A DNA stretch of 63,806 bases, filler included, from Reclinomonas americana ATCC 50394 (Eukaryota), in NCBI GenBank assembly GCA_048213135.1. It is 7 parts of 7 records of this genome, joined end to end, with 100 filler letters (N's around TTAATTAATTAA, not from the genome) between each part and the next. Parts side by side here need not be neighbours in the genome. Positions count along the whole stretch, not along the records: positions 43,563 to 51,937 come from PS015525.1; positions 52,038 to 56,867 come from PS015526.1; 5 more parts are not named here. One strand, 5' to 3'. Shown piece after piece: positions 45,179-63,806 of this stretch. The first letter of the stretch is position 1. Each line of letters opens with the position of its first letter. The translations under genes were made by a program, and so were the position numbers. The notes under the pieces were generated by a model, which was not told the origin of the DNA, did not search any database, and saw only the letters and a list, made by a program, of their open reading frames with translations.

Positions 45179-48017
45179 CTCTATCTCCTCTCTCTGTCTG
45201 TCTCATTCTTTCTCTCTGTCTCTCTGTCTGTCTGTCTCTTTTCTCTCTTGTCTTCGTGCTCAATTGTTGGTGCTTGCAGGAGCCTGCCGCATCCTCCTCC
45301 GCCTCCGCCTCTGTGTCGTTTCAACCGGTGGTGCGTCGCTGTTGATTATCGTCTCCATTCCATCTCATCTCATTTGCTGTTTCATCCGCATGCAGGTCGT
45401 GGAAGCTGTTGCTGCACCCGCCGAACACCCGGTGTGTAACACGCACACGCTCGTTGTCGAGTGCACTCTACTCACAGTATCCGTTAGCAGGCCTCGGCCC
45501 CAGCTGCTGCACCTGCAGAGGAGCGCGCGGTGCGCTCATCCTCTCCTGTACATCGTGGGTTCTGCAACTCGCTCACAATTCACTGCAACAGGCACACCCA
45601 CCACCGGCATCGTCTGCTCACGATGCAGCGTCACCAGTGCGTCGAAATCGCCTACACCCTCACTTGTTGCTTCTCGCCTGACCATTCCCGCTCTGCAGAC
45701 GAGTCAGCGCTTCAGCGAGAAAGGCGCGCCAAATGAGCACGACCACAGCGCGACCTCCTCCGATGATTACGATGTGGAAGACGAAGACGATGACGACGAC
45801 GAGGCTGATGAAGATGACGAGGACGCCGTGATTGTGGAGGCTGCACGCGCCGCGGATGCTGACGACGTGCGATCGTCGCCGAGAACAGCACCTGTTACTG
45901 CGCTGTCGCGATTTGCCTTGGATCCCATGGTATGCACGGCTGCGTGCAATGTTTCCCTTTCTCTTTCTCTCTCTCACTCACACACTCATGCACTTGCTGT
46001 CGCTTCAGTCTCCACCCCAGCAGGACGCGTCCATTCACGAGTCGGATCTGCTGCTGGTGGACTCGCCAGCCACTGCGCCGCTGTCGTCGACTCAAGTCGC
46101 AGCCGTCGAGGAGTCGCCAAAGAATAGCCCGTCGCCCAGAAAGGTAGAGATACTTGCTCTCCATTGTGTCTAATCGACCGCGCCTCAAACTGCCGTTTCC
46201 TAACCCATTGCAGCTCAAATGGAGCCAGCGTGAACCCGGCGACTCGTCGCCACGATCACCTGTGCAGTTCCAGCGCCAGCAGGATCTTGGTTCGTGAATG
46301 AAGATCCCATCTCCTTTCCCGTTAGGTTCGTCGCCTTACATGCTGGTTCGATTCATGCAGTGGAGGAGACGCAGCCGTCACCACCACAGGCTCCGCAAGG
46401 CTCCAGCACTTTCCGCTCTCCGCGCTTGCGATCATCACCGCCAGCCACCGGAGCGAAGCTCGGTTCCCCTCCGTCGATTGCACCCCAGTCTTCCTCGGCC
46501 GCCGCATCGTCGCCAGAGGCCTCTTCGTCGCACTTTGTGGAGGCCTCCGGCGGCACGGCGCGTGTGGCGGTGTCCGGCGAGGTACTGTCTCTCTATCTGT
46601 ATGTGTTTCTGTAGAGTGACCGTGCCTTGTACTCACTTCTTCGCATTCTCTCTTCATAGGACCCCAACATTGTCGCCGATGCGGCCGCTGTCCCCACCGA
46701 CCTTCGGCTGCCGTTTACAGTTTCTTGCATTGTGCGCGACGCGACACCGCAGGAAGTGGTGTCGGGCAGTGGCACGCCGGTGAGTTGTTCGTTGAGTTTC
46801 GTTCGCGTGGAAGAGTGAGTGCTGACGTGTGTGTGAATTGTGTTGCAGGACTTTTTGGTGACACAGCGCGAGTCCATCATCATGCCGGATCAGCACGAAT
46901 ACTCGTTCGATCGAGTGGCTCTGTCGCGCACCGAACGCGAGGAAGTTCTCAGCCATCTGGCTGCTGCGGCCTCCAACGACGCGCTTCGCGGACTCTCCCG
47001 GTGTGTGTTGTTCCACGGCGAGACGGCTTCCGGTCGCGACCAGTTTTACGAAGGTGTGCAACACACATGGCAGAGATGCGTGCATTCTCTTGTTCACAAT
47101 CTTCTGTTTGCAGCCTTTGTGTTGAGCATCTGCGACAAGCTGTGTGACGAACGTGACCTGCTGGCGGAGGATCCTGCCTCGTATGACTTGGTGTGTGTGT
47201 TTGTGTGTAGTGCCTCACTCGCAGTTTCCTCCGCGCACTTGCTCTAACTCGATGACAGGGAGCGGAAGGGGATCACGCACAAGTCAGCCTCTCGTACTCG
47301 GTGCTGCAACTGAGTGGCGAGAATGCTCAAGATCTCGTGCAAAAGTGGAAGGAACGCGAGCACCGCCGATCTGCGAGCGACTTGCGACAGCACAAATCCT
47401 CGGCGCACAACGCATCCGGTTCTGAGTTGCGTGCAAAGCGCTGTGTTTTTTTCTTTCCACTGTCATTTAGTTGGCTCGTGAATAATGTGCGTGTGACGAC
47501 AGTGTGTCGGATGTGCGCGACAGTCGTGCATCTTCAGCGTGCGTTGATATCTTGAAGAGAAGGAGTCGGGTGCAAGTTGTTTGCTGATATTGTTGGTATG
47601 TTTGTGGTGTATGCAGGCGCCGCGATTCGGCAGCCAGCGGTCGCTCCACGGCGACGCAGCGCACGCACGTTGACGAGGCCGCATCGCCACCGCGAGTTGC
47701 GTGTCGCTGTGACAAGAATGCTGATTTCATGGAAAATCNNNNNNNNNNNNNNNNNNNNNNNNNNNNNNNNNNNNNNNNNNNNNNNNNNNNNNNNNNNNNN
47801 NNNNNNNNNNNNNNNNNNNNNNNNNNNNNNNNNNNNNNNNNNNNNNNNNNNNNNNNNNNNNNNNNNNNNNNNNNNNNNNNNNNNNNNNNNNNNNNNNNNN
47901 NNNNNNNNNNNNNNNNNNNNNNNNNNNNNNNNNNNNNNNNNNNNNNNNNNNNNNNNNNNNNNNNNNNNNNNNNNNNNNNNNNNNNNNNNNNNNNNNNNNN
48001 NNNNNNNNNNNNNNNNN

Positions 48018-48052
<35 letters not shown>

Positions 48053-51000
48053 AAGAGAGAAGAAGAAGAAGATGATGAATAGGATTGAAAGATTTGTTCC
48101 GCAAAGAGAGTGATTTGGTGAGCGGGTCAAGGGTTGAGGGCGAGAGAACTGCTACAGCTGTAGAGAAGAAGGCAGGGGAAGAGGGAAAAGGAGGAAGGAG
48201 AGAGAGAGAATTGGCTGGGAGTGGAAGTGCGAGAAGGACGAGAAAGATGAAGGTGGGTTAGACAAAAGCCAAGACGTGGAGGTGACAACATGTGACGAAA
48301 GAGCGAAGCACCGTCATGTGTTCTTCTTCTCTTTATGTGCTCTCTCATCACACTCCTTCATTCACCGTCTGCTGCCTCAGGCATCACTGGAGCGCGCGAT
48401 TCGTGCACGCAGCTTTGCCACGACCACGGACGAGACGGGTCACGAAATGCGCCACCCGGCATCTCACATTGTGACCACGTTCAACATCAAGTTGTCACGA
48501 TGGCGGTCGCCGGCGTCTGCTGGTGTGTGTTAGTTAGCACACATATTTGAAAGAAAGTATTAGCATGACATCTGACTCGCGGCGCTTGTGTCATTGCAGA
48601 CGCTGCCGAGGTCAGTCGCATCCGCCTCATGTGCGTGAACCTGGTGCCGGCGGTTCGGTCGCATGTGGGCGGACGCAAGATTGTTGCGTACGCTTTATTG
48701 TGTCGTGCTGCGCCGCTTACTGACCGTTTGCGCGCACGCACCAGATGCCGCGCGAGTTCATCCCCATCAGTCAGAGTGTCACCGCGCTGCGCAACGTGCT
48801 GCAGGCGCTGTCGATGCCGGTGGACGAGGCCCCGTACATTCGGTATCGCGAGAGCGTGCTGACGATGCTCCTGAAGGACTTTACAGAGACTGCGGACTCA
48901 ATGGCGTTGCGTGGGGAATGGGGTAGTCTGCTGTGGAGGACTTATTTCTTACTTTTTCTTCATTTGTGCTTCCCGCAGTGTGGTGCTCTCCGTCACCCCC
49001 TCACCTGCGGATCGGCAAGGCAACGAACACACATTGCAGTTTGGCCACTACGACCAGGCGTCGGTTCCTGGCTTGCTGCGGCCTCAGGTCAGCAACTTCC
49101 ATTGTTTACCCATTGCATGATGTTGCGTATCTCATTCTGTGCTCGCACGTCGCAGGCACGTGTGTTTGCCTCTGTGGGCGAGTTCCCGCTCTCGGAGCAG
49201 GAACGCATGCAGTCCAATCTGCTGCTGCACACATCGCGTGGTGAATTGTTCAATTGCTGGCAGTCAATTCCTGTCATGCTGACGAGGCGCTCTTACAGAG
49301 GTACACGCTCCGCGCAAGAACGTCAAGGTGGTGTGCCGAGCCAAGCCGCTGGTGGCTGGCGGTGATGCTCAACAGCAGGTGCGTTGCTCTCTTCGTTGTC
49401 GCCTACTCTCCTCCGTTTTCTTCGACTCACAACCGCCCTGCAGAGCTGCATTGGATTCGCGGAGTTGAATGGCCGCCGTGCGACGCTCTCCAACGGTCTG
49501 CAGTACTCGGTGGACACTGGTTTCCCGTCGCACACGTCGCCTCAGGTGTGTGTGTACTGACGTGAACAAAGCAGTGCTGCATCGCGCACTAACATTTGTG
49601 CTTGTGTGCGCGCGTCAGGTCCTGGCTGCGCGTTTCCGTCCACTGGCCTCGGCCGCACTGGCCGGCAAGAACTCGGTGGTATTCAGCTACGGCTCGAAGG
49701 CCTCTGGCAAGCTCACTTCGCTCTTTGGTTCGCCGGAGGACCCCTCGTCTGGTTTGCACGCGCGCATCATTCCTATCGCAATCCACGTTGGTGGTGGGCT
49801 CACACACACTCTCAGGTCTCTTCTCGATGCTGTTGGAGGAGCTGAACAGGAAGATTGCCACTCTTCAAGTGGACCCCGATGCGCCCATTATCGACATCCA
49901 AGTGGTGCACACTGTGCTGGACGTTGCCGGCACTGTTGTCATGGATCTGCTTGGAGACACCTCGGCACCATCGGTGAGTCCGACATTCTTGTGGCCTTGC
50001 CACCTGTAACCTCATCGTGAGGCGAACGCAAACAACAGCCGGTGGTTGTCCGCACCTCGGTGTACGGCGACAATGTGCTCGAGAACATTTTCCTGCGCGA
50101 GTTGACACCTGTCGACATTTGGGTGCGTGACACAAGGTTGCTGGAGGCTTTGACGCTTAGTATACTCATTCTTGGTTGCCGCGCAGTCGATTCCGGAGAT
50201 TTGCGCCCGGTGCCTGCGCGAGGACAGCCCCGACGACAGCTCGCTGGCGCTCAGCTCGCTGGTCGTGCTCACATACGTGCAGTTCACCGACCGCACCACT
50301 GGCGATCGCAACTGTGGCAAGATTGCGCTCGTCGATTTGCCGACTCCAGTGCCACCGGTGAGTGCGCGTACGTTAACATAATTCGCACGCTTGTACGCGA
50401 TGTTTGCGCGGGCGTGTGAGCGCGTGTGTTTGTGTGTGTTTTTTTATTGTGTATGTGTGTGTGTGTTGTGTGCGTGTGTGTGTGTGTGTGTCATTCTTCT
50501 GTCTCATTCTCCCTCTCTCATACACACTCTCTCCCTTGCTGCCCTTTCCCACAACACAGGCTTTCCGCTTGCGCGACATTGACCCGAGTCTGCACTGCGA
50601 GGTGGTGGCAGCGACGCGCACTGTGACACACGTGCGCTCTGTGCTGCACGACGTGTTTGCCGGCGGCACACATCCGCGGTTCCGCGACAACAAGCTGACA
50701 CACCTGCTTCGTGATTGCATCGATCCAGTGGACTCGCGTGTCATGTTGCGTGGGGGAGAACGCAGTGATTCATCTATCTGTTTCTTGTCTGGGTTCTGAT
50801 TGCCTGTGCGCAGTCTGTATACGCACGTGGTGCCGGCCATGTCGCATCTGGAGGAGACGCTGACGACGATGAAGTACGGCGACTTGAAGACCGACTATAC
50901 GGTCAAGGTTGGTCGCTGCGAGTGCGTGGGATAACAACAGTTCTGTTGTGACAACCTACTGACTACCAAAAAATCCGGCACAGACTCCGCGCTGGCTGCC

Positions 51001-54000
51001 GCCTGGCACCCGCGCGTCGCGCCTTCCACGTCCGTCGGTCTCGCTGTCAGGGCGCAGCAGCCCCCAGCAGCGCTTTGCTGGTGGACCGCCTACATTGGCG
51101 GCCGCCGGTGGCTCCACGTCGTCGTCGTCGTTGCAGGCGCGCGGAGGCGTCAAGACTCTGGTTCGCGTCCGTCCGCTGTTTGCCGAAGAAGCGCGGTCGC
51201 CATCTGGAGGAGATCTTGTTCGTGNNNNNNNNNNNNNNNNNNNNACAGTTTTCTTTATTCATCTTGTCCTCTGTGCTTGTTATTGACAGTGTTTCATTCG
51301 TAGGTGGCCATCGATCGCATCATCGACAATGAGCAGATTCTGCTGGTGGGCGGCAAGTCGTTCCTGGCCGACCACGTGTTCGGACCGGACTCGACAAACA
51401 CAGTTGCGGGCGCATGCGTTACACACTGTCGTTCACTCGTCGCACTCACTTTTGCTCCGTCTCGAAGGATGTGTACAATCACTCCAAGCGGCTGGTCGAC
51501 TGGGCGTTGCTGGGCAACAACGCGTCGTTGATTCTGTACGGCGAGGCCATGTCGGGCAAGACGTACACGTTGTATGGACACGACGAGGATCCAGGACTGC
51601 TGCCGCTGTATGTGGACGACATCTTGGAGCAGGCTGCTCGTGTGCGCGATGCCTCTGGCACAGTTGTGGTGTTGACAGCCAGTGTTGTGCGCGTCACTCC
51701 GGACGACCGCATTGTCGACCTGCTGCGATCGGAGGTGAGTGCGGTGGCCGTACTTTCTTCTGTTGCACTGTCCACTCAAATCGCCTCCCACTGTCACCGC
51801 AGAGTGAAACCGGTGCGCAACCGTGCCTGCGCACGACGGTCAATGGCGAAGTGCATCTGGAGCACGCCACCGTCATGGAGATTGGCGATTTTGCTGACAT
51901 TGAGGTAGGCAGCGCACGTCGGGAGAGTTTGTGTGTGNNNNNNNNNNNNNNNNNNNNNNNNNNNNNNNNNNNNNNNNNNNNTTAATTAATTAANNNNNNN
52001 NNNNNNNNNNNNNNNNNNNNNNNNNNNNNNNNNNNNNCCCCGTTTGTGGAATTCACACATATTCCTTTCCCCCCGTGCAGCGCATTGCGGATGCCGTGTC
52101 GATGGACTCGCAGGAGGTGCAGCGCCAGTCGCATACGATTTACACGCTGTACTTGGACGTTCTCCGGCCATTTGAGGGCGGCGGTCCGCCCTCGCACGGC
52201 AAGATTGTCATTGCGGATCTCGCGGCGCAGCAGTTCGGAGCTGCTTCGTCCAATCCCGACGTGAGTTTCAGTCCGCTCGCCTCTCTCTTTTTCAGCGCTT
52301 CGTTGGCTTAGTATTGCGCGTTGATTAGGTGCAACACCTTGCCGGCGAGTTTGCCGCACTGCAAGAGCTGCTTGTGGCGGCGCAAACCACGCAGCCGGCG
52401 GATGAAAGTTTCGATTCGAGCAGCGACGCCTCTCCACTGCTGTGACAGCAGGCACTCATCCCATCTCGGCCACGCAGACTCCATTACCTCCAGCAACTTT
52501 ATGCACACACTGTTCCGCCAGTACAAATTGGTGGGACTGCTTGGCACTGCGTTTGCACGCCGATTCAAGTCAATGTTGCGTTTGCATTAGTTTTGTGCTG
52601 TTGCGGGGGTCGCGGAGAAGTCTGACGAATTCATTAATGTGTGCAGTGTCAGTATTCATCTGAGTCCGTACATTGGCCATCTGGAGCATGATACGGCGGC
52701 ATTGCGCTTCGGATTCTTCCGTTCCAATGCGCCGTCGACTGTTGCCGCTACTGACGCGTCGCCAAATGGTTTGAGGGGTTTGATTCGTGTTCCGAGGATG
52801 TGTTTTTTGCTCACTTGCCTCCCCCGCGGTCGCAGTGTCGCCGCGATCGCTTTCACCACGTGTACTCAATGGCTCTCCCGATGGCAGACCGCAGTCACCA
52901 GTATCCTCTCGTTGCGTCGCGAAGCTTACAAATGTGTGTGGCTTTCCTCGTTCGCTCATGTTCCTGCGCAGAGCCCTGGCAAACGGTACGCAGCAAGTCG
53001 CAGATGCAGACGCCACCCTCGTCCAGTGGGCGAGGAGCGGACGCTGGTGGTGACTTCAAGGCGGTGGTTCTGGTCCGTCCCTACTATCGCAATGAGTATC
53101 GTTGGGGTGACCAAGCTGTGCAAATCGTCAAGCCGGATCGTGTGGCTCTGGCCACTGGCGAGGTGTTCCGTTTCGATGCCGTGCACGATATGGATACGGC
53201 GCCGCAGGTACGCTTGTTCATCCCATGTGTTGATAGCCAGTGAAGACTCAAATCAGTCGCATGCACAGGTGGCCCACGAGTCGATCATGGAGCTTGTGCA
53301 ACATGCGTTGGCCGGCAATGGCGCCTCCCTGTTCACATACGGATCGGTGAGTCGTGCTGTTCTTCCTCCCTTGTTGTGTGTGTTCTGTTCACATCTCACC
53401 ACGCCTTGCAGCTGCTCTCCGGAAAGCAACTGCAACAGTTTGCCTACGAGAGAGGTGCTTACACCACGTGTATCTCACCGCGCACTTGGTGTTGTAGTCG
53501 CACTCATAATCTCTCCTCGCGGCAGGCATGCTGGCTGCTGCTTGCAAGGCGCTGTTTGAGGCACCAGCTGCGGGTGCCGGCTCCATGTCTGTGCGCGTGG
53601 CCGTTTTCGAACTGGTCGGCGACAATCTGCTCGACATCAACGTCGAGGAACGAGTGCAGCAGTCCGCGCTGGCGGGTCGCGCTACGCCGTCCAGTGGCGC
53701 CACGAGTGGGCGCTCGAGTGTGCAGCAGGGCGCAAAGAGGAGACCGCCGGCGCAGCGCGAGTTCATCACCGGACAGCTGGCCGAGCGTTTGCAGGGTTTG
53801 TTCTGTTGTCAATCGTGTGTGGTGAGATGTGTGTCGTCGAGGCTCACTCCTGCACACACAGAACGCAAAAAGGGCACTGCGCGTGTGGAGCAGGCGCTGA
53901 ATGTGCGCATGCCCAGCAAGGGTCGCACAGTTGTCGATGGAGCTGTGCTGTTGCCGGTGACGAGTCACGCCGATGTTGTGGTGCGGNNNNNNNNNNNNNN

Positions 54001-54117
54001 NNNNNNCTTTCTCTCATTCTTGCCGTTTGTCTGTGGTCTGTCACTCTGTCTGTGTGCCAGTTTGTACGTTTCCCTCCGTTTCTCTCTCTCTCTTTCTCTC
54101 TTGGTTTGTCTCTTGTT

Positions 54118-54155
<38 letters not shown>

Positions 54156-55079
54156 TCGCAGTCATGCACACGCTCGTTGTGAAGCATCTACATCCAATGT
54201 GTTGTGTGTGCTGTATCGTTCTGCTTACTCGCACTGCTCGCACTGCAGCCGACCTTGGCGACCTGCGCTTGTATGTGCGCGTGAGACCACTGTTGGATGA
54301 CGAACCAGCTGATGTGGTTTGTTGGTGCATTGCTTGTCTCATCGTTTCTCGTGACAACTCACTCCACATTCCCGGCAGATGGTGACGGCACCCAACGAGA
54401 CCACTGTTCGTGTGGCGCTGCCGAACAACAAGAACGAATCGTTTGTCGTTCGACGTGCCTTTGGCGCCGAGTCGTCGCAGGCGGTGCGTGTCGATGCAAG
54501 ACGGCAGTGGTGACCTCCTCGTCACACTCATTTCTTCTTTGTGACACAGGACGTGTGGCGGTCGACTTCCGATCTCGTGGAGTGGTCGTTTGGCGGTCAC
54601 GAGAGCTGTGTGTTGTCGTATGGCCACCACGCCACCGGCAAGACGCACACGATGATTGGCAACCCTGAGGATCCGGGTTCGTTGTCGTTGCATGATTGCT
54701 CTCTTCTATTCAGTGAAATGCAGCTCACCGCTCTCGACACTCGCTCATGCAGGCATTCTGGCGCGCGCATTGCACCAGATCTTTGATCGCATGCCGCAAA
54801 TTCAGCAAGACGATTCTTACGGTTGCGTCCGCTCATGCTGGCTCGCCTTCTCTTCTCTCGTCTCATAACTGGTGATCTGCAGACTTGGTGCCCGTCGATC
54901 TGGTGTGGAATGCGGTGGAGGTGTGTGGCGAGGAGGTTACGGATTTGTTGGCTCCGGTGGACGAGGGCGACGACAATCCGCCGCTGGCCGGCCTGCAGGT
55001 GGTGGTGCCGGAGGCGCGTCGCCGTGTGGGTTTGCGGGGCGCCACTGTTTTGCGCATCCAGACGTTTGAGGACATGATG
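44726..55079 (+). CDS. Multi-exon kinesin-superfamily protein with at least five tandem degenerate motor domains (partial at both ends)
   Basis: Kinesin motif series repeats five times. D1 about 46714-49045 (YSFDRV, GETASGRD, YRESVLTMLL, HTLQFG). D2 about 49319-50880 (NVKVVCRAKPL, GSKASGKL, IALVDL, FRDNKLTHLL, EETLTTMKYG). D3 about 51146-52713 (VRVRPL, GEAMSGKT, QSH, ADLAA, ALRFG). D4 about 53052-53982 (VLVRP, FRFDAV, GS-LLSGKQ). D5 about 54260-55079 (VRVRPL, GHHATGKTHTMIG, GILAR). Confidence 0.8.
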
Positions 55080-55174
55080 GTGAGAAGAAGGAGGAAAGGG
55101 GGAAAGGGAAGGGAGTGCAAGGGTGAAAGAGATACGGAAGGAGACTAAGGGAGGGAAGATGGCACTGCAAATTG

Positions 55175-55248
<74 letters not shown>

Positions 55249-55969
55249 NNNNNNNNNNNNNNNNNNNNNNNNNNNNNNNNNNNNNNNNNNNNNNNNNNNN
55301 NNNNNNNNNNNNNNNNNNNNNNNNNNNNNNNNNNNNNNNNNNNNNNNNNNNNNNNNNNNNNNNNNNNNNNNNNNNNNNNNNNNNNNNNNNNNNNNNNNNN
55401 NNNNNNNNNNNNNNNNNNNNNNNNNNNNNNNNNNNNNNNNNNNNNNNNNNNNNNNNNNNNNNNNNNNNNNNNNNNNNNNNNNNNNNNNNNNNNNNNNNNN
55501 NNNNNNNNNNNNNNNNNNNNNNNNNNNNNNNNNNNNNNNNNNNNNNNNNNNNNNNNNNNNNNNNNNNNNNNNNNNNNNNNNNNNNNNNNNNNNNNNNNNN
55601 NNNNNNNNNNNNNNNNNNNNNNNNNNNNNNNNNNNNNNNNNNNNNNNNNNNNNNNNNNNNNNNNNNNNNNNNNNNNNNNNNNNNNNNNNNNNNNNNNNNN
55701 NNNNNNNNNNNNNNNNNNNNNNNNNNNNNNNNNNNNNNNNNNNNNNNNNNNNNNNNNNNNNNNNNNNNNNNNNNNNNNNNNNNNNNNNNNNNNNNNNNNN
55801 NNNNNNNNNNNNNNNNNNNNNNNNNNNNNNNNNNNNNNNNNNNNNNNNNNNNNNNNNNNNNNNNNNNNNNNNNNNNNNNNNNNNNATGGAAGGGGAAGGG
55901 AGGAGAAGGGGGAAGAGAGGGGGACGGAGGGAAGGGGAGGGGGAAGGTTAGGGGAAGGGGAAGGGGAGG

Positions 55970-55990
55970 AGGTTGTCTGTCTTTCTGTTA

Positions 55991-56031
<41 letters not shown>

Positions 56032-56113
56032 ATTGACTTACTGTTTCTCTCTTGGTTTGTCTGTCTGTCTGTCGCTTTCTCCCTCTCTTTCTCTCTTGCT
56101 TTGTCTGTCTGTA

Positions 56114-56211
<98 letters not shown>

Positions 56212-56307
56212 ATTGACTTACTGTTTCTCTCTTGGTTTGTCTGTCTGTCTGTCGCTTTCTCCCTCTCTTTCTGTCTGTCTGTCGCTTTCTCCCTCTCTTT
56301 CTCTTGC

Positions 56308-56359
<52 letters not shown>

Positions 56360-56360
56360 A
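55970..56360. repeat. (CTGT)n tetranucleotide satellite with a 180-nt duplicated unit
   Basis: AATTGACTTACTGTTTCTCTCTTGGTTTG occurs at 56031 and 56211 within TCTG runs. Confidence 0.85.
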
Positions 56361-56823
56361 TTCTCTCTGCGTCTACCTTTCTGCCTATGTACCTCCGTTG
56401 TCTTTGTTTATCGAGGCTCAGCGCGCGCTTGCGTCTTGGTGCGGATTGGAGCAGTTGTATTTTCGTTCCTTCTCCTCGCTGTGTGGTTCGATGTGCTTGT
56501 CATTTTGTGTTTATCGCATCTTGCGTTCCTATGTTCTCGCCCTTTCCGTGATGGTTTGTTGTTTGTTTGTTTGTCTGTAGAGTGTGTGTGTGAGAGAGAG
56601 AGAGAGTGCTTGTTATTCTACTCTCGTTTTCTGAGTATATCCAAATTTGCTTGCGCGGGTTCGAGCTATTAGATTTATGTGTTCTGTCGCGTCTGTGGTT
56701 TCATCTGGTTTCTTTCTCTCATTCTTGCCGTTTGTCTGTGGTCTGTCACTCTGTCTGTGTGCCAGTTTGTACGTTTCCCTCCGTTTCTCTCTCTCTCTTT
56801 CTCTCTTGGTTTGTCTCTTGGTT

Positions 56824-56867
<44 letters not shown>

Positions 56868-57072
56868 NNNNNNNNNNNNNNNNNNNNNNNNNNNNNNNNN
56901 NNNNNNNNNNNTTAATTAATTAANNNNNNNNNNNNNNNNNNNNNNNNNNNNNNNNNNNNNNNNNNNNTTTAGAATTTTTATATTAAATCATTTCTTTACG
57001 AATAGCTTCGAAATTATTTACGAATATATTCGATATTTTCCCTCGTATTTTTCGTAAGTTAATATATAGACA

Positions 57073-57522
57073 ATGTCAGAAAATCAAACCCCAAATGTGG
57101 CTCCGGTTGCAGTAGAGGCACCAGCTCACCCAAATAAGAAACAATTTAAGAGAGAGATGACGCCGGCGCGTCAATTAGCAATAGAAAAGATGAAAGAAGC
57201 AGGTGCAAAAGCCAGAGCAGAGAAAGCAGAGGCCATAAAAAACGGCACCATTAAAAGACCACCAAATAAGAAACAATTAGAAAATCAATTAAAGGAGTTA
57301 ACTGAGAAATTAACACAAATAGAGTCAAAAAATACAGCAAATGAAATAGTGATAAAGAAACCTGTTAAAGTGGAGAGAAAGCCGGCCGTAGATAAAAAAG
57401 AATTTATGACAGAACAAACATATACAAACATGCAAGTTGCTAAAATGCAAAATCCAAATATTGACTTAACACCGATGCCACCAAAACCAAGATATACATT
57501 TGGAGGTATTAATTATTTCTAA
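57073..57522 (+). CDS. Hypothetical Lys-rich coiled-coil viral-type protein, 149 aa
   Basis: Clean ORF with AT-rich codons; the motif HPNKKQF/PPNKKQL is duplicated. Confidence 0.7.
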   Translation: MSENQTPNVAPVAVEAPAHPNKKQFKREMTPARQLAIEKMKEAGAKARAEKAEAIKNGTIKRPPNKKQLENQLKELTEKLTQIESKNTANEIVIKKPVKVERKPAVDKKEFMTEQTYTNMQVAKMQNPNIDLTPMPPKPRYTFGGINYF

Positions 57523-57527
57523 TCATA

Positions 57528-58475
57528 ATGTATAATAAAATGAACAAACTAATCTTTGATCAACCAAGATTTAATGAAATGGTCGGTTATACAGTCCCAT
57601 ATAAAATATATGTTGATACTCCTGTCGATTTGATTAATGCAACATTGGGACGTGATAAACTAAAAAAGAAATTAGTTAAACGTGCCACAATTGAAGAACA
57701 ATTTAATAGACGGTTCCCACAATATGAAAGTGCTAATTATTGGAATGAAGAAGCGTTAGCAACTCCAGCCGTAACTCCGCGACGTTTGGGCGGTGGATCT
57801 ATGGTTAGCGATACTGACTCATTTGTTTCATTTGCAAATTTATTTGATACTCCGCGTTCTTATGCTAGTTCTGTGGGTGCTAGTTCTGTGGCGGATGATG
57901 ATAAATCATTTGTTTCATTTGCAGGTTTATTTGATGAAGAAGAGGGATGGGTAGACCCTAACGCCTCTACAGTAGTTAATCCTGTTATAGATTTTCAAAG
58001 TCCTCTAATATCACTCCGCAATTTACCACCACGACGTATATCGGGACCGACACCACCACCATCAGAAATGAGGAGATCATATGAAAGAAAAACAATCTTA
58101 GATACTAGCGGATTGCCTGTTTCTCCCATATCACCAGTAAAACAAATTCCTATACCATTATCTCAGTTATCTCAGCCAATTGAAGCTCGCGTTGTAGATG
58201 AATCATTAAGAAATCTAGGGGATATGTTAGATAACCAAAGACAACATGAAGTTCATGAACAAGTTTTTGGAAGTAGTGACCCATTATATAATAAATACTT
58301 TGGCGGTGATGTTGCTCAATCGAGTGCTTTATATGATGATTCAGTTTCTAGTATTAGGGGTTATAGTATACCATTTACTCCGCCAGTACCAGCAGAAAAG
58401 AAGTTATCTATGATAATAACTAGAAAACGTGAAGAACCATCTATTGAATCCCAATTTGTCGATTTTAGGGATTAA
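57528..58475 (+). CDS. Hypothetical Ser/Pro-rich viral-type protein, 315 aa
   Basis: Long ORF in AT-rich DNA with an internal duplication SFVSFANLFD / SFVSFAGLFD. Confidence 0.7.
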   Translation: MYNKMNKLIFDQPRFNEMVGYTVPYKIYVDTPVDLINATLGRDKLKKKLVKRATIEEQFNRRFPQYESANYWNEEALATPAVTPRRLGGGSMVSDTDSFVSFANLFDTPRSYASSVGASSVADDDKSFVSFAGLFDEEEGWVDPNASTVVNPVIDFQSPLISLRNLPPRRISGPTPPPSEMRRSYERKTILDTSGLPVSPISPVKQIPIPLSQLSQPIEARVVDESLRNLGDMLDNQRQHEVHEQVFGSSDPLYNKYFGGDVAQSSALYDDSVSSIRGYSIPFTPPVPAEKKLSMIITRKREEPSIESQFVDFRD

Positions 58476-58484
58476 TAATATACA

Positions 58485-58646
58485 ATGCCTTCTAAATCTA
58501 TTAAACAGATGAATTTTTTTAGAGCTGTGTTAAATGCTAAGAAAAACGGTAAAGGAAACAAGCGAGTTAAGAAAGTGGCCAAGAAACTAACCATAAAACA
58601 AATTAATGATTTTACCATGTTAAAGAAAGGGTTTAAAAAGAAATAG
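58485..58646 (+). CDS. Small basic protein, 53 aa, resembling the phage MPAKSxxQ (DUF3008-like) peptides
   Basis: Not in the ORF track because of its length. Translated by hand: MPSKSIKQMNFFRAVLNAKKNGKGNKRVKKVAKKLTIKQINDFTMLKKGFKKK*. It starts 9 nt after the previous stop. Confidence 0.6.
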   Translation: MPSKSIKQMNFFRAVLNAKKNGKGNKRVKKVAKKLTIKQINDFTMLKKGFKKK

Positions 58647-58957
58647 ACATATAATATTGTAACTGAAATAACAAAGTTACATATAAATCGTTGTTTGATA
58701 ATTTCCATTTCGACTATACTTTTTTCAGGTATTATAAATTTGACATTAAAAGTTAACAATACCTATCTAGCACTATAAGACATCAATTCATTAATGATTT
58801 GATTGTACGTTTCATCATCTAAGACTGTTAAAATTTNNNNNNNNNNNNNNNNNNNNNNNNNNNNNNNNNNNNNNNNNNNNNNNNNNNNNNNNNNNNNNNN
58901 NNNNNNNNNNNNNNNNNNNNNNNNNNNNNNNNNNNNNNNNNNNNNNNNNNNNNNNNA

Positions 58958-59919
58958 GAATACTTCAGCAGATTCAAACCACCAGAGCCCGAGCAAATAG
59001 AATTATATGAATATGATATTTTAGAAAGCTGTTCAAATAGTGCGTTAATATTTTGTGATAAACCATACAAAGGCATTGGACATAGATATGATATTATTTC
59101 ACAGTTCCCATATATTCTACAAAGTCAACAATTTCAAATTCCACTAACAAAAGGCAAACTAACACATATAACGGATGAAGAATTCAAAGATATGAAATAC
59201 TTTAAGTTTGGAGTATATCATGTCCACATAGACAAACCAAATCCTAAATTACTGATACAAAATAAACAAAGTTGGTATACACACACAGATTTAAACAGAG
59301 CGATTGAATTAGGTTATGAATTGACTTTAATATGTCACGAAGATGAACCAAATGCATTATTATATGATAAGTTTATCAATGGTTCAAAGTTATTTGGCCC
59401 AATGATAAGAAATCTTTACAAATTCAAAGCAAAAGGTTTTAAATGTATGAAGAATTATATTAATTGTTTATGGGGTGCATTGTGTCAGACTAATAATATG
59501 ACATTGACATTAACGCCAACAAATCCTGATGTAAATCATGATAGATGGTTTATTAACAATATAACACCGTGTGATAATGGAAACTGTAAAGTCGATGTAG
59601 TTAATCTAGAAAAACCATATGAAACAAACTTTGCACGTATAAAACCGTTTATTATGGCCAAGTCTAGATATATGTTATCTAAAATCATTGAAAAAACATA
59701 AATAATGTTTTATGGGCTCATACTGATGGTATTATTTTAAGTGCTCCAATTTCAGCAAGCACTAAAACAGGTTCTGAATTGGGAGACTTAAAATACAAGG
59801 GTAAAAGTGAATGTGAAATCAAAAATGTTATTAACTTCAAGTTTGCTGATGATGAAAAAGTCGACTTATTCAAAGATATCAAAGAACAAAAAAGATTAGC
59901 CAAGAAACTATATAAATAA
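58958..59919 (+). CDS. polB: Divergent family B DNA polymerase, polymerase domain (protein-primed-like), 5' end in gap, -1 frameshift at about 59691-59696
   Basis: Motif A YDIISQFP (about 59086) and motif B KNYINCLWGAL (about 59450) are followed by ARIKPFIMAKSR. After a one-base shift in the A6 run come motif C WAHTDG and GSELGDLK, with a stop at 59917-59919. Confidence 0.8.
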
Positions 59920-59989
59920 TTTTTCTCTATATATAGATTTCTATAAAAAGGGCTTAAAGAAATAATGATATATAATATTATAAATAAAA

Positions 59990-60466
59990 ATGCTGAGTAA
60001 ATTTTTTAAAGCGATTGAGTATGTTAATATTTCAGGTGGTTTATTTCTAGATGACTTCTATTTAGTTCAAGATACCTATGACCTCTTCGACACCATGATG
60101 GAGGGTTATGATGAACTGATAAAGAAGCTCAAAAAGAAAGTTAGAAAATATGCGAAGAATTGGGATCTCAGCGAAATGGAAGCATTATATATGATTCTAA
60201 TACATCGTGAGCAGGAAGTATATAATATATTACTCAAAGACGATATGGAGATGTATGACCAGTTCACGCAAGCATCATTTGACTTTTGGCATGCACCACA
60301 TAGAATGTATACGCACATATATGATCATGCATTTGGTATTATAATTGCTAGTCTTTTAGATAGATGCAAATTACAATACAAAGATGAAGACGGTCTAAAT
60401 GTTTTTCCAAAGCTAAGCAGTCCACTCAGAAAGATGCTACTAGCTAGGTTTACCTTCTTAGATTAA
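59990..60466 (+). CDS. Hypothetical helical protein, 158 aa
   Basis: Clean ORF after an AT-rich intergenic region ending AAAATG. Confidence 0.65.
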   Translation: MLSKFFKAIEYVNISGGLFLDDFYLVQDTYDLFDTMMEGYDELIKKLKKKVRKYAKNWDLSEMEALYMILIHREQEVYNILLKDDMEMYDQFTQASFDFWHAPHRMYTHIYDHAFGIIIASLLDRCKLQYKDEDGLNVFPKLSSPLRKMLLARFTFLD

Positions 60467-60507
60467 GTTTAATTTATCATATTATTATGTCGGTTTAGGA
60501 TATAATA

Positions 60508-60637
60508 ATGTTCTTTTGTAAATTTTGTAAAGAAAAGATTAAATATCCTCTTGATCAATATATCTGTTGCTTACATGATAAATGTACAATGAGAATAGTG
60601 ACACGAGTATATGCTATGCAAAGTATTAAAACATTGG
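60508..60637 (+). CDS. Small Cys-rich (possible zinc-ribbon) ORF, 3'-truncated
   Basis: MFFCKFCKEKIKYPLDQYICCLHDKC: a CxxC plus distal Cys/His. Confidence 0.4.
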
Positions 60638-60789
60638 NNNNNNNNNNNNNNNNNNNNNNNNNNNNNNNNNNNNNNNNNNNNTTAATTAATTAANNNNNNN
60701 NNNNNNNNNNNNNNNNNNNNNNNNNNNNNNNNNNNNNTTCAGGGGAAAGGCGCAGCGGAATCGCTCGCGGGAGTTGTTTTTCCGTTGAT

Positions 60790-62679
60790 GTATGTATTAC
60801 TCATCATTGTATTGTCGTCGTCATGATGGCGTCCACCACAGCGCCTTAGTGAGCTCGCCGATCTTGTTTTGCGTGGCGCCACAGGCGTGCACCTGAGGAA
60901 GAGAGAGAGAGAGAAGATGCATGTCAGCCAAAGGCAAGACTCGGTATCAGCGAAATATTCGTCGTCGTACCAATACCAAGTTCGTCTTCTCCGGTTGATC
61001 AGCCATCTGTCTCCGTGGCACCAGCAAGCTTAGGCCTGCCACCGTATTGACCTGCAGCACGTCGAACCAATCCATGCGCAGGCGACCGAGTCGCGCGTGC
61101 ACGTCCACCAGCGCGTTGACAAATTGCTGATCTTGTAGCTGCGTCCAGCGCCGATTCTGCTGCCCCAACGCGGCTGCAAACAAACGCAGCGCGTACACGG
61201 TTGGACGCGCCGTCCACACTCCCGTGTTGATGCTCAGTGTGTGTTGGTGGGAGGCGCACACGTGGCCCGGCGGACCGTTCTGCATCGTGTGTGATTGAGG
61301 AGACGGAAATTGTGCGGTCGTATTCTCGTCGTCTCTCACCTTGCCGAAATCGAGCACACTGTTGGGAATGGCGTACGACCATGGATCGCGAGCTCGGTCC
61401 CGGGGAGCCGCTTCCAGCATTAGCGTAGCGTCGTGCTCGCCGCTGTAAAAGTCGGCCTGGAAGATGACATCGGGCGGTATGTCGTACAGCTCCGACACCG
61501 ACGCCACCTGCGGCAAATCCCACACCGGTCGCACAAACATGGCATCCACGTCGGTGTAGAACACCTGGACGCCGCATCGCAGCAACAGGTAGCCATACAT
61601 GTAGCGCAGGTTGATGACGGGCGGGTAGCCGACATAGTCGGGCTGCCGATCGACGAGCCTACACGAACACACCGCTGTCAGACAGACTCTCAACATTCTA
61701 TCCACAAACTCCCTCTCCCTTCTCTCACCAGCCTGACTCGTCGAGCACCACTCCCACATCCTTGCCTGGCTCAAACAGTGCCTTGACAGCTGTCACAGTT
61801 GTCTCATCCCCGCACACAATCAGGGGAAGCAGCCGGTCACCGTGTGCAGCAAAGAAGCGCGACAGCCACATTCTGACGAGCTCCAAGTATGCCTCTGCGT
61901 TGTGCGACGCCAGCTGCACGGCTGTGAAGACCGTCAGTCGATGTGGCGAGTCCCCGGGCTGCATAGTCATGCGCGGTTGCGCCAACACAGCCGTCAACTT
62001 TTCCAACATCTCCCGGCTCTCGTGCATCGCAGGTCCCTGCTGCGGAAACAACGACTGCGGTGTGGGAGCGCGGTGGTTGCCAGCTGCTGCCGCCGCCTGC
62101 ACGAGTGCCGTCTTGTCCGTGAGCACGCGCCACATCTCGCTCTCCATCTCGCGACAAAAGTCGGCAGGGTAGAACTCAATGCGCGGAAACTCGGCCGTCC
62201 GCTTGTTTGCACGCAGCGCAGCGGAGAAGGTGTGCACTGGTGGCTCGGAGCGATCCGGCACAGGCGATGGCACCATGGTGAAGGTGCGTTGCACAAACTG
62301 TGGACCGAGATATTCGCACTCTCGCTCGTCCACCACCATCACCACCCTGTCTGCTGCGCCTGGATGTGCGCGACGAGTCGGTAATCCGAGTGCACGAACA
62401 TCAATCTTGTTGCACCCCCCACAAACCGTGCAAGGAGAGGCAGACGAGATCCGTGGAGGTCACCTGCGACACTGTCGCAGCCAGTAGCGATGCTGCGTGT
62501 CTCCACTCGGCGAGAAACGGACGGCTGCGAGCAGCCGCCAGTTTATCCGCGGCAGGCGTCAGCGCCAGCGGTTTTTGCCACTGCAAGCGCTCATCCAGTG
62601 AGATGTGGCGGAGAGGACGTCGTCACCAGCACGATTCACGCAACACTCCAGTCAATCACAAAGTCGCAGTGCTTGCGGC
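60790..62679 (-). CDS. Nucleotide-diphospho-sugar transferase (Nucleotid_trans / GT77-like), partial
   Basis: LLRCGVQVFYTDVDAMFVRP (DxD motif), DVIFQAD, INTGVWTARPT and QDQQFVN are the conserved motif series of this family. Confidence 0.8.
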
Positions 62680-62792
62680 NNNNNNNNNNNNNNNNNNNNN
62701 NNNNNNNNNNNNNNNNNNNNNNNTTAATTAATTAANNNNNNNNNNNNNNNNNNNNNNNNNNNNNNNNNNNNNNNNNNNNGCGTTTTTTACAG

Positions 62793-63112
62793 TTGCCTTT
62801 GACACGTTCGACTTGGACGGTCGCGGTGCGATCTCGGTGGCCAATGTGCGATCGATTGTGCGGAACCTGATGCGCGGCACTAACTACAGCGACGACTGGT
62901 GCCGTCAGCTCGCCTCGCAGCTCATCAACCAGATGGACACCAACGCCGACGGAACCATCTCCTTCAACGAGTTCTCCACTGCATGCCGCAAGAATCCCGA
63001 GCTGCTCAGCATTTTCGCTCTGGCCGTGCCCGAGCTGCTCATTTTGCCGAACGGAGTTGCGTGCATACACGGGAAGGAAGAGAGGTCAAGCAAGGGTAAT
63101 CAATGGTGCTGA
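62793..63112 (+). CDS. C-terminal exon of an EF-hand Ca2+-binding protein (calcineurin B / neuronal calcium sensor-like)
   Basis: AFDTFDLDGRGAIS...QMDTNADGTISFNEFSTACRKNPELL contains two EF-hand loops, after a TTTTTACAG acceptor. Confidence 0.85.
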
Positions 63113-63806
63113 CGTTGTGTTGTGTGTTGCAGCATGTGGTCAAGGTTTCACACGAGGAGGAATAAGGGACAGCAGCGACGCGGATACGTTTTTGTTCTCT
63201 CTTTCTTTCCACCCTCGCTGTGCTGTGCTTGCACGCCCACACGAATGTACGATAAACGTCGACAACACAAAGTCCCCTGACGTTCTCACCTTGTCAACTC
63301 CGTCGCGTCATCGACAGGTGAGCGGATGCACACTCTCTCCGTGCACCTCGCAGACACGCACGTCTGTATGCAACACGCACGAGTCAGTAAACAAGCACAC
63401 GTCACACACACTTCCCGCGCGCGTGCACGGCCATTGCGCCATCGACCTCACCCTCTCCCACACTCACGCAATGCACTGTGTGTCTCACTGTGTGCGTGTC
63501 TCTCACAGACTGCACGCAAGCACACTCCACTCATTGTCACACATGGATCCCTACAAGGTCAGTCTGTGTGTGTGTGTGTGTGTGTGTTGTCTCCTCGGAG
63601 CTGACATGTGCAAGTCGCCCCGCGTTTTTCACTCCGTCTCACTCACTCTCATTCACGCACACATTCACAGTACATTCCGTCGGAGGAGTACGACTCTGAG
63701 ACATGGACCACCAATGCAGTTGCGTGAGAGAGTGCGGTGATTCGAATGTGCGGAGAATCCACTCATCAGTCTCTCACTCTCGCTCTCTCCCTTGTGCTCT
63801 CCCTCC

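Follow-up and report, generated by a model that had tools for sequence, protein, structure and literature searches.

Consecutive kinesin-like heads in Reclinomonas americana, several of which may be joined in a single polypeptide

A kinesin polypeptide is usually regarded as single-headed, with dimerization supplying the second head. Canonical kinesins of the PF00225 family have a head of about 335 residues, in which beta1, the P-loop, switch I and switch II, alpha4-alpha5, and alpha6 follow one another in order. The motor-homology domain of Vik1/Cik1 and the Costal2 protein have a kinesin fold whose nucleotide site is lost or impaired and bind microtubules without stepping; each chain has one such domain and works with a partner or as the product of a separate gene (Kar3Vik1, PMC3544905; Cos2, described as possibly non-motor in PMC2867816). 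A "tandem kinesin" (bioRxiv 10.1101/2025.06.11.659012) appears to be a laboratory construct of kinesin-1, presumably with two heads per polypeptide, and no natural gene. Our literature search recovered no paper on natural kinesin chains with more than two heads, and the text of the kinesin survey PMC2867816 does not discuss tandem or multiple motors, although its supplements may list architectures. Here we describe a locus of Reclinomonas americana ATCC 50394 (assembly GCA_048213135.1; positions 46714 to 55079 of a 63,806-nucleotide stretch, hereafter the window) in which five kinesin-like heads, D1 to D5, lie in succession on the plus strand. These heads resemble canonical ones in length and in the order of their elements; the locus differs from canonical kinesins in that several heads appear to share one chain, with no stalk between them and with largely degenerate catalytic motifs. 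It differs from Vik1/Cik1 and Costal2 in apparently having several such domains on one chain, of which D3 and D5 retain intact P-loops.

The five kinesin-like regions are real, colinear, and on the plus strand. In a Pfam scan of 70 plus-strand open reading frames (ORFs) between 46.2 and 55.1 kb, six matched PF00225, and these fell into five clusters: D1 (46837-47244, profile 37-88, 23.9 bits; 48724-49362, profile 246-291, 27.1 bits), D2 (49469-50017, profile 56-107, 22.3 bits), D3 (51333-51905, profile 44-165, 53.7 bits), D4 (52591-53556, profile 50-83, 11.5 bits, E value of 0.14), and D5 (54514-54783, profile 55-118, 39.2 bits). Only two of the 70 ORFs, those of D3 and D5, exceeded the PF00225 gathering score of 29.3 bits as single exons, with D1, D2, and D4 falling below it. 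We also built our own profile from 98 database kinesin heads found by HMMER, leaving out the top four hits, which are proteins with repeated near-identical segments, and applied it to the complete set of 1,836 frames between stops in the window. This profile recovered a colinear series of plus-strand exons for each of the five heads and no significant match elsewhere in those frames, including the sequence upstream of D1 within its scaffold piece (43563-51937). After splicing, the scores rank as follows: D3, 93.5 bits; the N-terminal half of D5, 75.6; D2, 64.8; the C-terminal half of D1, 36.3; the N-terminal half of D4, 34.6; and the N-terminal half of D1, 19.2. Complete heads are limited to D2 (336 amino acids [aa]) and D3 (339 aa), both colinear with the profile from beta1 or alpha1 to alpha6, while the middle of D1 is missing and only the N-terminal halves of D4 and D5 are present, ending in assembly gaps at 53987 and 55249. 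The five successive runs of kinesin motifs on which the original prediction rested are thus borne out by both profiles.

How far these heads can be joined depends on the make-up of the window, which is GC-rich (about 55 to 62%), intron-rich eukaryotic DNA of 63.8 kb. It consists of seven scaffold pieces (1-18557, 18658-43462, 43563-51937, 52038-56867, 56968-60637, 60738-62679, and 62780-63806) joined by six artificial N44-TTAATTAATTAA-N44 spacers (18558-18657, 43463-43562, 51938-52037, 56868-56967, 60638-60737, and 62680-62779) that carry stops in all six frames, and pieces that adjoin in the window need not be neighbors in the genome. Artificial spacers and ordinary gaps together make up 25 N runs. 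The kinesin region is crossed by the spacer at 51938-52037, which lies inside D3, and by gaps at 47739-48017 (279 N, in D1), 51225-51244 (20 N, in D3), and 53987-54006 (20 N); a further gap of 637 N (55249-55885) lies just past it, after D5. The gap-free stretch 48018-51224 contains the end of D1, the whole of D2, and the start of D3, so the D1-D2 and D2-D3 junctions are uninterrupted, and the gap-free stretch 52038-53986 contains the end of D3 and the start of D4, leaving the D3-D4 junction uninterrupted as well. The two halves of D3 that flank the spacer are complementary: they join within one intron, close to profile position 190, and yield a single-domain alignment, indicating that scaffolds 43563-51937 and 52038-56867 are very probably true neighbors. 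Upstream of D5, a CT-rich stretch of 112 nucleotides (nt) immediately after the last 20-N gap (54007-54118, plus strand) recurs with 99% identity 2,705 nt away at the scaffold end (56712-56823). This repeat suggests either that contigs are mis-ordered, in which case D5 would be preceded by about 1 kb of low-complexity DNA, or that another repeat unit follows.

Our gene model, read by eye and checked by script, comprises 36 exons and 31 introns and encodes 1,564 codons without a stop. Each of the introns is bounded by GT and AG, with 29 measuring 58 to 77 nt and the other two 92 and 202 nt; the GC content at the three codon positions (GC1/2/3) of the exons is 0.66/0.46/0.71, compared to 0.52 in introns, and the donor hexamer GTTGCG is common to several introns at homologous positions of different heads. 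Head D1 (46660-49087) is built from the N-terminal exons 46660-46779, 46849-47053, 47114-47190, and 47259 to about 47418 and, beyond its gap, from the C-terminal exons 48381-48522, 48600-48652, 48745-48905, and 48979-49087. Tentative upstream exons at 45720-46582, with open frames and GT-AG sites, would add an acidic, Ser/Pro-rich N-terminal extension, for which at least 5,000 in-frame paths exist. D1 is followed by an intron (49088-49155, 68 nt), a linker exon (49156-49240, 85 nt), and a second intron (49241-49298, 58 nt), which together form the D1-D2 junction (49088-49298). Head D2 (49299-50907) is complete and gap-free in eight exons. The D2-D3 junction (50908-51142) consists of a single intron (50908-50983, 76 nt) and a Ser/Pro/Arg-rich linker, without an in-frame ATG, that is encoded in the beta1 exon of D3.

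Head D3 (51143-52768) scores as one alignment over profile positions 35 to 243 across the artificial spacer, with exons 50984-51217, 51304-51402, 51468-51734, and 51803-51904 on the N-terminal side and 52081-52260, 52329-52373, 52449-52579, and 52647-52768 on the C-terminal side. One segment of it is disputed: 52374-52448 is either a 75-nt intron with a weak donor (scores of 0.3 for the donor and 3.7 for the acceptor in the splice-site matrix described below) or part of the coding sequence, in which case a TGA lies in frame at 52443-52445. A frameshift in D3 was also considered and was dropped after the frame was re-read, leaving this TGA as the one disputed site. At the D3-D4 junction (52769-53051), the best-scoring path uses introns 52769-52835 (67 nt) and 52934-53003. 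The N-terminal half of D4 (53052-53986) then begins in a beta1 exon that starts at 53004 on this path, or spans 52972-53207 with the acceptor proposed originally, and continues in exons 53269-53346, 53412-53454, 53526-53795, and 53862-53986 up to the 20-N gap at 53987. The N-terminal half of D5 (54249-55079) comprises exons 54249-54316, 54379-54483, 54550-54676, 54753-54821, and 54883-55079. The spacers measure 259 to 335 nt from the last conserved residue of one head to the first of the next, and splicing leaves linkers of about 45, 61, and 67 residues in which Ser, Pro, and Arg abound, with no stalk between heads, in agreement with the short Ser/Pro linkers that had been predicted.

In the spliced translation, the nucleotide-binding motifs are largely degenerate. 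Measured against the P-loop criterion GxxxxGK[ST], the motif is intact in D3 (GEAMSGKT) and D5 (GHHATGKT) and degenerate in the other three of the five heads, D1 (GETASGRD), D2 (GSKASGKL), and D4 (GSLLSGKQ). The kinesin consensus is SSRSH at switch I and DLAGSE at switch II; the corresponding segments read HPASH and NLVPAM in D1, SSLAL and DLPTPV in D2, and RQSH and DLAAQQ in D3, so that DLAGSE is absent from all three heads in which switch II can be read, while both switches of D4 and D5 fall in assembly gaps. The alpha4-L12-alpha5 microtubule-binding motif is better kept than the catalytic motifs, and the alpha5 element in particular is comparatively well kept (FRDNKLTHLL in D2, YRESVLTMLL in D1).

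Several features of the junctions argue that these heads would be translated together. After GT-AG splicing, the chains that run from the C-terminal part of D1 through D2 into the N-terminal part of D3 (597 aa) and from the C-terminal part of D3 into the N-terminal part of D4 (435 aa) contain no stop. The beta1 exons of D1, D2, and D3 lack an in-frame ATG. The D3 frame opens at 50963, about 30 nt past the point where read-through from D2 would stop (50932), with no ATG in between, and it remains stop-free until 53557, deep inside D4; an opening so close behind the D2 stop and without an ATG means that D3 cannot be an ordinary separate gene. In our view fusion is argued most strongly by these missing starts, given that neither D2 nor D3 has an ATG in its first exon and that an independent start for D3 could not be accommodated. 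The introns between heads (68, 58, 76, and 67 nt) are of the length typical of the locus. Using a splice-site position weight matrix (PWM) trained on 25 introns supported by kinesin homology, we found that the D2-D3 donor ranks first among 20 GT sites and its acceptor second among 11 AG sites in the spacer, and that the D1-D2 path proposed originally scores best among 78 in-frame paths. The 85-nt D1-D2 linker exon has GC1/2/3 values of 0.69/0.43/0.71, near the coding average, and no AATAAA is visible by eye in the D1-D2 or D2-D3 spacer. The original prediction had joined D1 to D2, D2 to D3, and D3 to D4 by GT-AG splicing; phases and splice dinucleotides check out at all three junctions, with the revision that at D3-D4, which is spliceable in frame, the second intron given above (52934-53003) outscores the one proposed (52911-52971). 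As it also stated, the D4-D5 link crosses an N gap (20 N, 53987-54006) and is unproven.

A number of observations nevertheless weigh against a single chain. We shuffled each spacer 1,000 times, with strict rules that allowed introns of 58 to 77 nt and CAG or TAG acceptors; with up to two introns, in-frame paths appeared in 337, 402, and 328 of the 1,000 shuffled spacers for D1-D2, D2-D3, and D3-D4, respectively, and with up to one intron in 124, 219, and 117, whereas lenient rules yielded 633 to 767 per 1,000. Because in-frame GT-AG paths are this frequent in shuffled spacers, hand splicing alone proves little. The product of the three strict two-intron fractions is about 0.04. The predicted absence of stops between domains holds for the spliced chain but not if the introns at the D1 and D2 donors are retained, in which case stops follow 11 and 9 codons past those donors (49118 and 50932). 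Candidate starts exist for D2 (ATG at 49209), D4 (52869, 52881, 52932, and 53004), and D5 (54164 and 54197). The D3-D4 junction has three open frames over about 52755-53050, 1,226 in-frame paths, weak splice sites with donor PWM scores of 3.6 and 1.7 (leave-one-out range, -2.4 to 9.8), and a low GC3 of 0.44 in the linker exon. D3 itself has either the weak 75-nt intron or the in-frame TGA, and the D4-D5 link spans its 20-N gap, possibly along with about 1 kb of low-complexity DNA. The heads share only 17 to 29% pairwise identity (about 100 aligned positions), as distant from one another as from other kinesins, and in a tree of the five together with 77 other kinesin heads (121 columns) they form no clade; the smallest group that contains all five holds 32 of the 82 tips with a support of 0.28, and we consider this tree inconclusive. 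Finally, protein and metagenome searches recovered no orthologue, so the junctions have not been seen in another genome.

The main alternative is a row of distinct head genes packed tightly in tandem, perhaps with D2-D3 as one two-head gene. Their transcripts would start at promoters within the array or be cut from a polycistronic precursor at the AG sites interpreted here as acceptors. The read-through stops just past D1 and D2, the in-frame ATGs ahead of D2, D4 (52869-53004), and D5, the ease of in-frame splicing in shuffled spacers, and the weak D3-D4 splice sites all suit such an array, as does the CT-rich low-complexity DNA found upstream of both D5 and D1. It accounts poorly for D3, which lacks an ATG ahead of the P-loop region, could not fit an exon upstream, and has a frame that is stop-free up to D4; a lone D2 gene would leave only 88 nt between the D1 stop and the D2 ATG; and the spacer introns are exactly locus-typical in length, with the fused path the top-scoring in-frame path at D1-D2. 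We consider separate genes a possibility to be kept in mind but doubt it. Decay of a duplicated array into pseudogenes not translated as modeled, with the degenerate motifs reflecting lost constraint, would explain the state of the catalytic motifs in D1, D2, D4, and partly D3, the possible TGA at 52443, the low GC3 of the D3 C-terminal exons (0.44 to 0.54), the low single-exon Pfam scores of D1, D2, and D4, and the failure of protein and metagenome searches to find an orthologue. It is improbable given that the 1,564 codons in 36 exons are free of stops and frameshifts save for the disputed TGA, with GT-AG boundaries at every one of the 31 introns, that the overall codon-position GC bias is retained, that all structural elements of D2 and D3 stand in order over about 336 to 339 aa, and that the alpha5 motif is retained. 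Improper joining of paralogous kinesin genes from different loci, by scaffolding or concatenation, might be suspected in a window of scaffolds and artificial spacers with so many N runs, one of the spacers inside D3, and a scaffold end that repeats the sequence upstream of D5; this is very unlikely, however, in view of three head-to-head junctions in uninterrupted sequence, D3 halves that are complementary across the spacer and align as one domain, and an identity among heads too low for collapsed copies.

Weighing these points, we favor a single chain of at least four heads (D1 to D4) as the best single reading of the sequence and hold it with moderate confidence, and the original prediction of one multi-head polypeptide stands to that extent, tempered by the frequency of chance in-frame joins and the lack of an orthologue in the searches made. 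Confidence is graded along the array: fusion of at least D2 with D3 is likely, so that at least two heads would probably be joined and four or more plausibly, whereas a chain that includes all five is doubtful.

The introns of the heads bear on how such a chain might have arisen. An intron at profile position 67/68 in phase 0 is present in D2, D3, D4, and D5, another at position 111 in phase 1 in D1, D2, D4, and D5 (four of the five heads in each case), and a third at position 315 in phase 2 in D1 and D2 and, by hand alignment, in D3; the position-315 donors read GTTGCG in D1 and D2 and GTTTGC in D3. These shared positions and phases suggest that the heads are old, diverged copies of one intron-bearing unit, which would have multiplied by tandem duplication. 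The sequences do not fit collapsed or recent duplicates.

A word-indexed protein search with the D3 ORF and a metagenome scan found no orthologue, and a HMMER search against 1.84 billion representative proteins gave 764 hits at an E value of ≤0.001, only 4 of them at ≤1e-10, none close and all generic kinesins; the search for the same architecture in other organisms was therefore negative among these representatives. Single exons of D3 and D5 place these heads in the kinesin family: all 30 Atlas neighbors of the D3 exon are kinesin clusters, and the P-loop exons of D3 and D5 resemble many kinesin heads of known structure without favoring any one family, the nearest by sequence being KCBP (3h4s), KIF14 (6wwt), a Plasmodium kinesin-8 (7z2b), and CENP-E (1t5c). 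Among the 150 HMMER matches listed, 21 have more than one profile row, five by our reading contain two separate heads (P0005, P0007, P0016, P0052, and P0096), and none contains three different heads. P0007, a gene model from Culex, has two copies that score equally and might reflect an annotation artifact. P0005 from Biecheleria cincta (1,670 aa) and P0096 from Polykrikos kofoidii (1,562 aa) are ORFs of assembled dinoflagellate transcripts, indicating that two-head chains exist as mRNAs. P0005 resembles the window in having two heads (residues 27-374 and 431-783) in one ORF with a linker of about 57 residues, and it differs in keeping GQTGTGKT, SSRSH-like, and DLAGHE motifs and in having a long tail. 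Both dinoflagellate proteins differ from the window in having two heads only, and they are not orthologues (38% identity over about 85 residues). The description of the architecture as previously undescribed consequently holds for more than two heads and does not extend to two-head chains, which are known from these transcripts.

We propose that the locus is one gene for a chain of kinesin-like heads that have diverged strongly, at least four in number (D1 to D4) and perhaps five or more, connected by flexible Ser/Pro-rich linkers of about 45 to 67 residues and preceded by an acidic low-complexity N-terminal extension. With three of five P-loops degenerate, no DLAGSE in the three heads with a readable switch II, and alpha4-L12-alpha5 better kept, the chain is most likely non-stepping. 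It could bind the microtubule lattice multivalently, with neighboring heads on neighboring tubulin dimers, and might thereby staple, space, or cross-link microtubules in stable arrays. The earlier suggestion of a ruler or cross-linker fits the degenerate ATPase motifs. The sequence shows the heads, the order in which they lie, an open frame after splicing, and the state of the motifs; we infer translation as one chain, microtubule binding, and any such function. A bolder version, in which five or more mostly ATPase-dead heads, more of them lying in the gaps or past the scaffold end, would occupy one tubulin dimer each along a protofilament and form an 8-nm periodic staple or ruler for stable microtubule arrays, is speculative. 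If a chain of five or more heads is real, it would represent a class of multi-head microtubule-associated proteins not known to have been described, and four or five covalently linked, mostly ATPase-impaired heads would mark a new route from a motor fold to a multivalent microtubule binder. Such a chain would also give engineered tandem heads a counterpart in nature and offer a handle on lattice-binding periodicity encoded in one gene.

The remainder of the window holds several other features. The scaffold at 56968-60637 is AT-rich (28 to 38% GC in 2-kb windows, with N runs counted as non-GC, versus about 55 to 60% elsewhere) and carries intronless, ATG-started ORFs of 149, 315, 169, and 158 aa with no relative in Pfam, PHROG, or viral contigs; it looks foreign, whether a virus-like element, a plasmid-like element, or a contaminant. 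The idea that it encodes a protein-primed polymerase was a guess that those same searches did not support. On the minus strand, 60950-61792 is a 281-aa open frame with a weak match to a nucleotide-diphospho-sugar transferase family (PF03407, 28.2 bits) and no relative in the word-indexed protein search. Very long, repetitive frames in which Thr, Ser, Gly, Ala, and Val abound (1,268, 397, 593, and 414 aa and more) occupy 8406-17907 on the minus strand without a Pfam family match and may together form a single gene, about 9.5 kb long, for a giant repeat protein. Exons of a cyclic-nucleotide-binding cation channel of the voltage-gated type lie at 38595-41268 on the minus strand (PF00027, 64.6 bits; PF00520, weak), with vertebrate HCN4, at just 33% identity, as the closest match among database proteins. 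At 43780-44144, a long way upstream of the kinesin heads, a 42-nt motif occurs three times at a spacing of 161 to 162 nt and a 46-nt motif twice, 164 nt apart, which suggests about three tandem units of about 162 nt. Finally, two open frames at 2457-3975 on the plus strand match the TACC C-terminal coiled coil (PF05010; 30.1 and 23.1 bits) and mark another microtubule-related gene.

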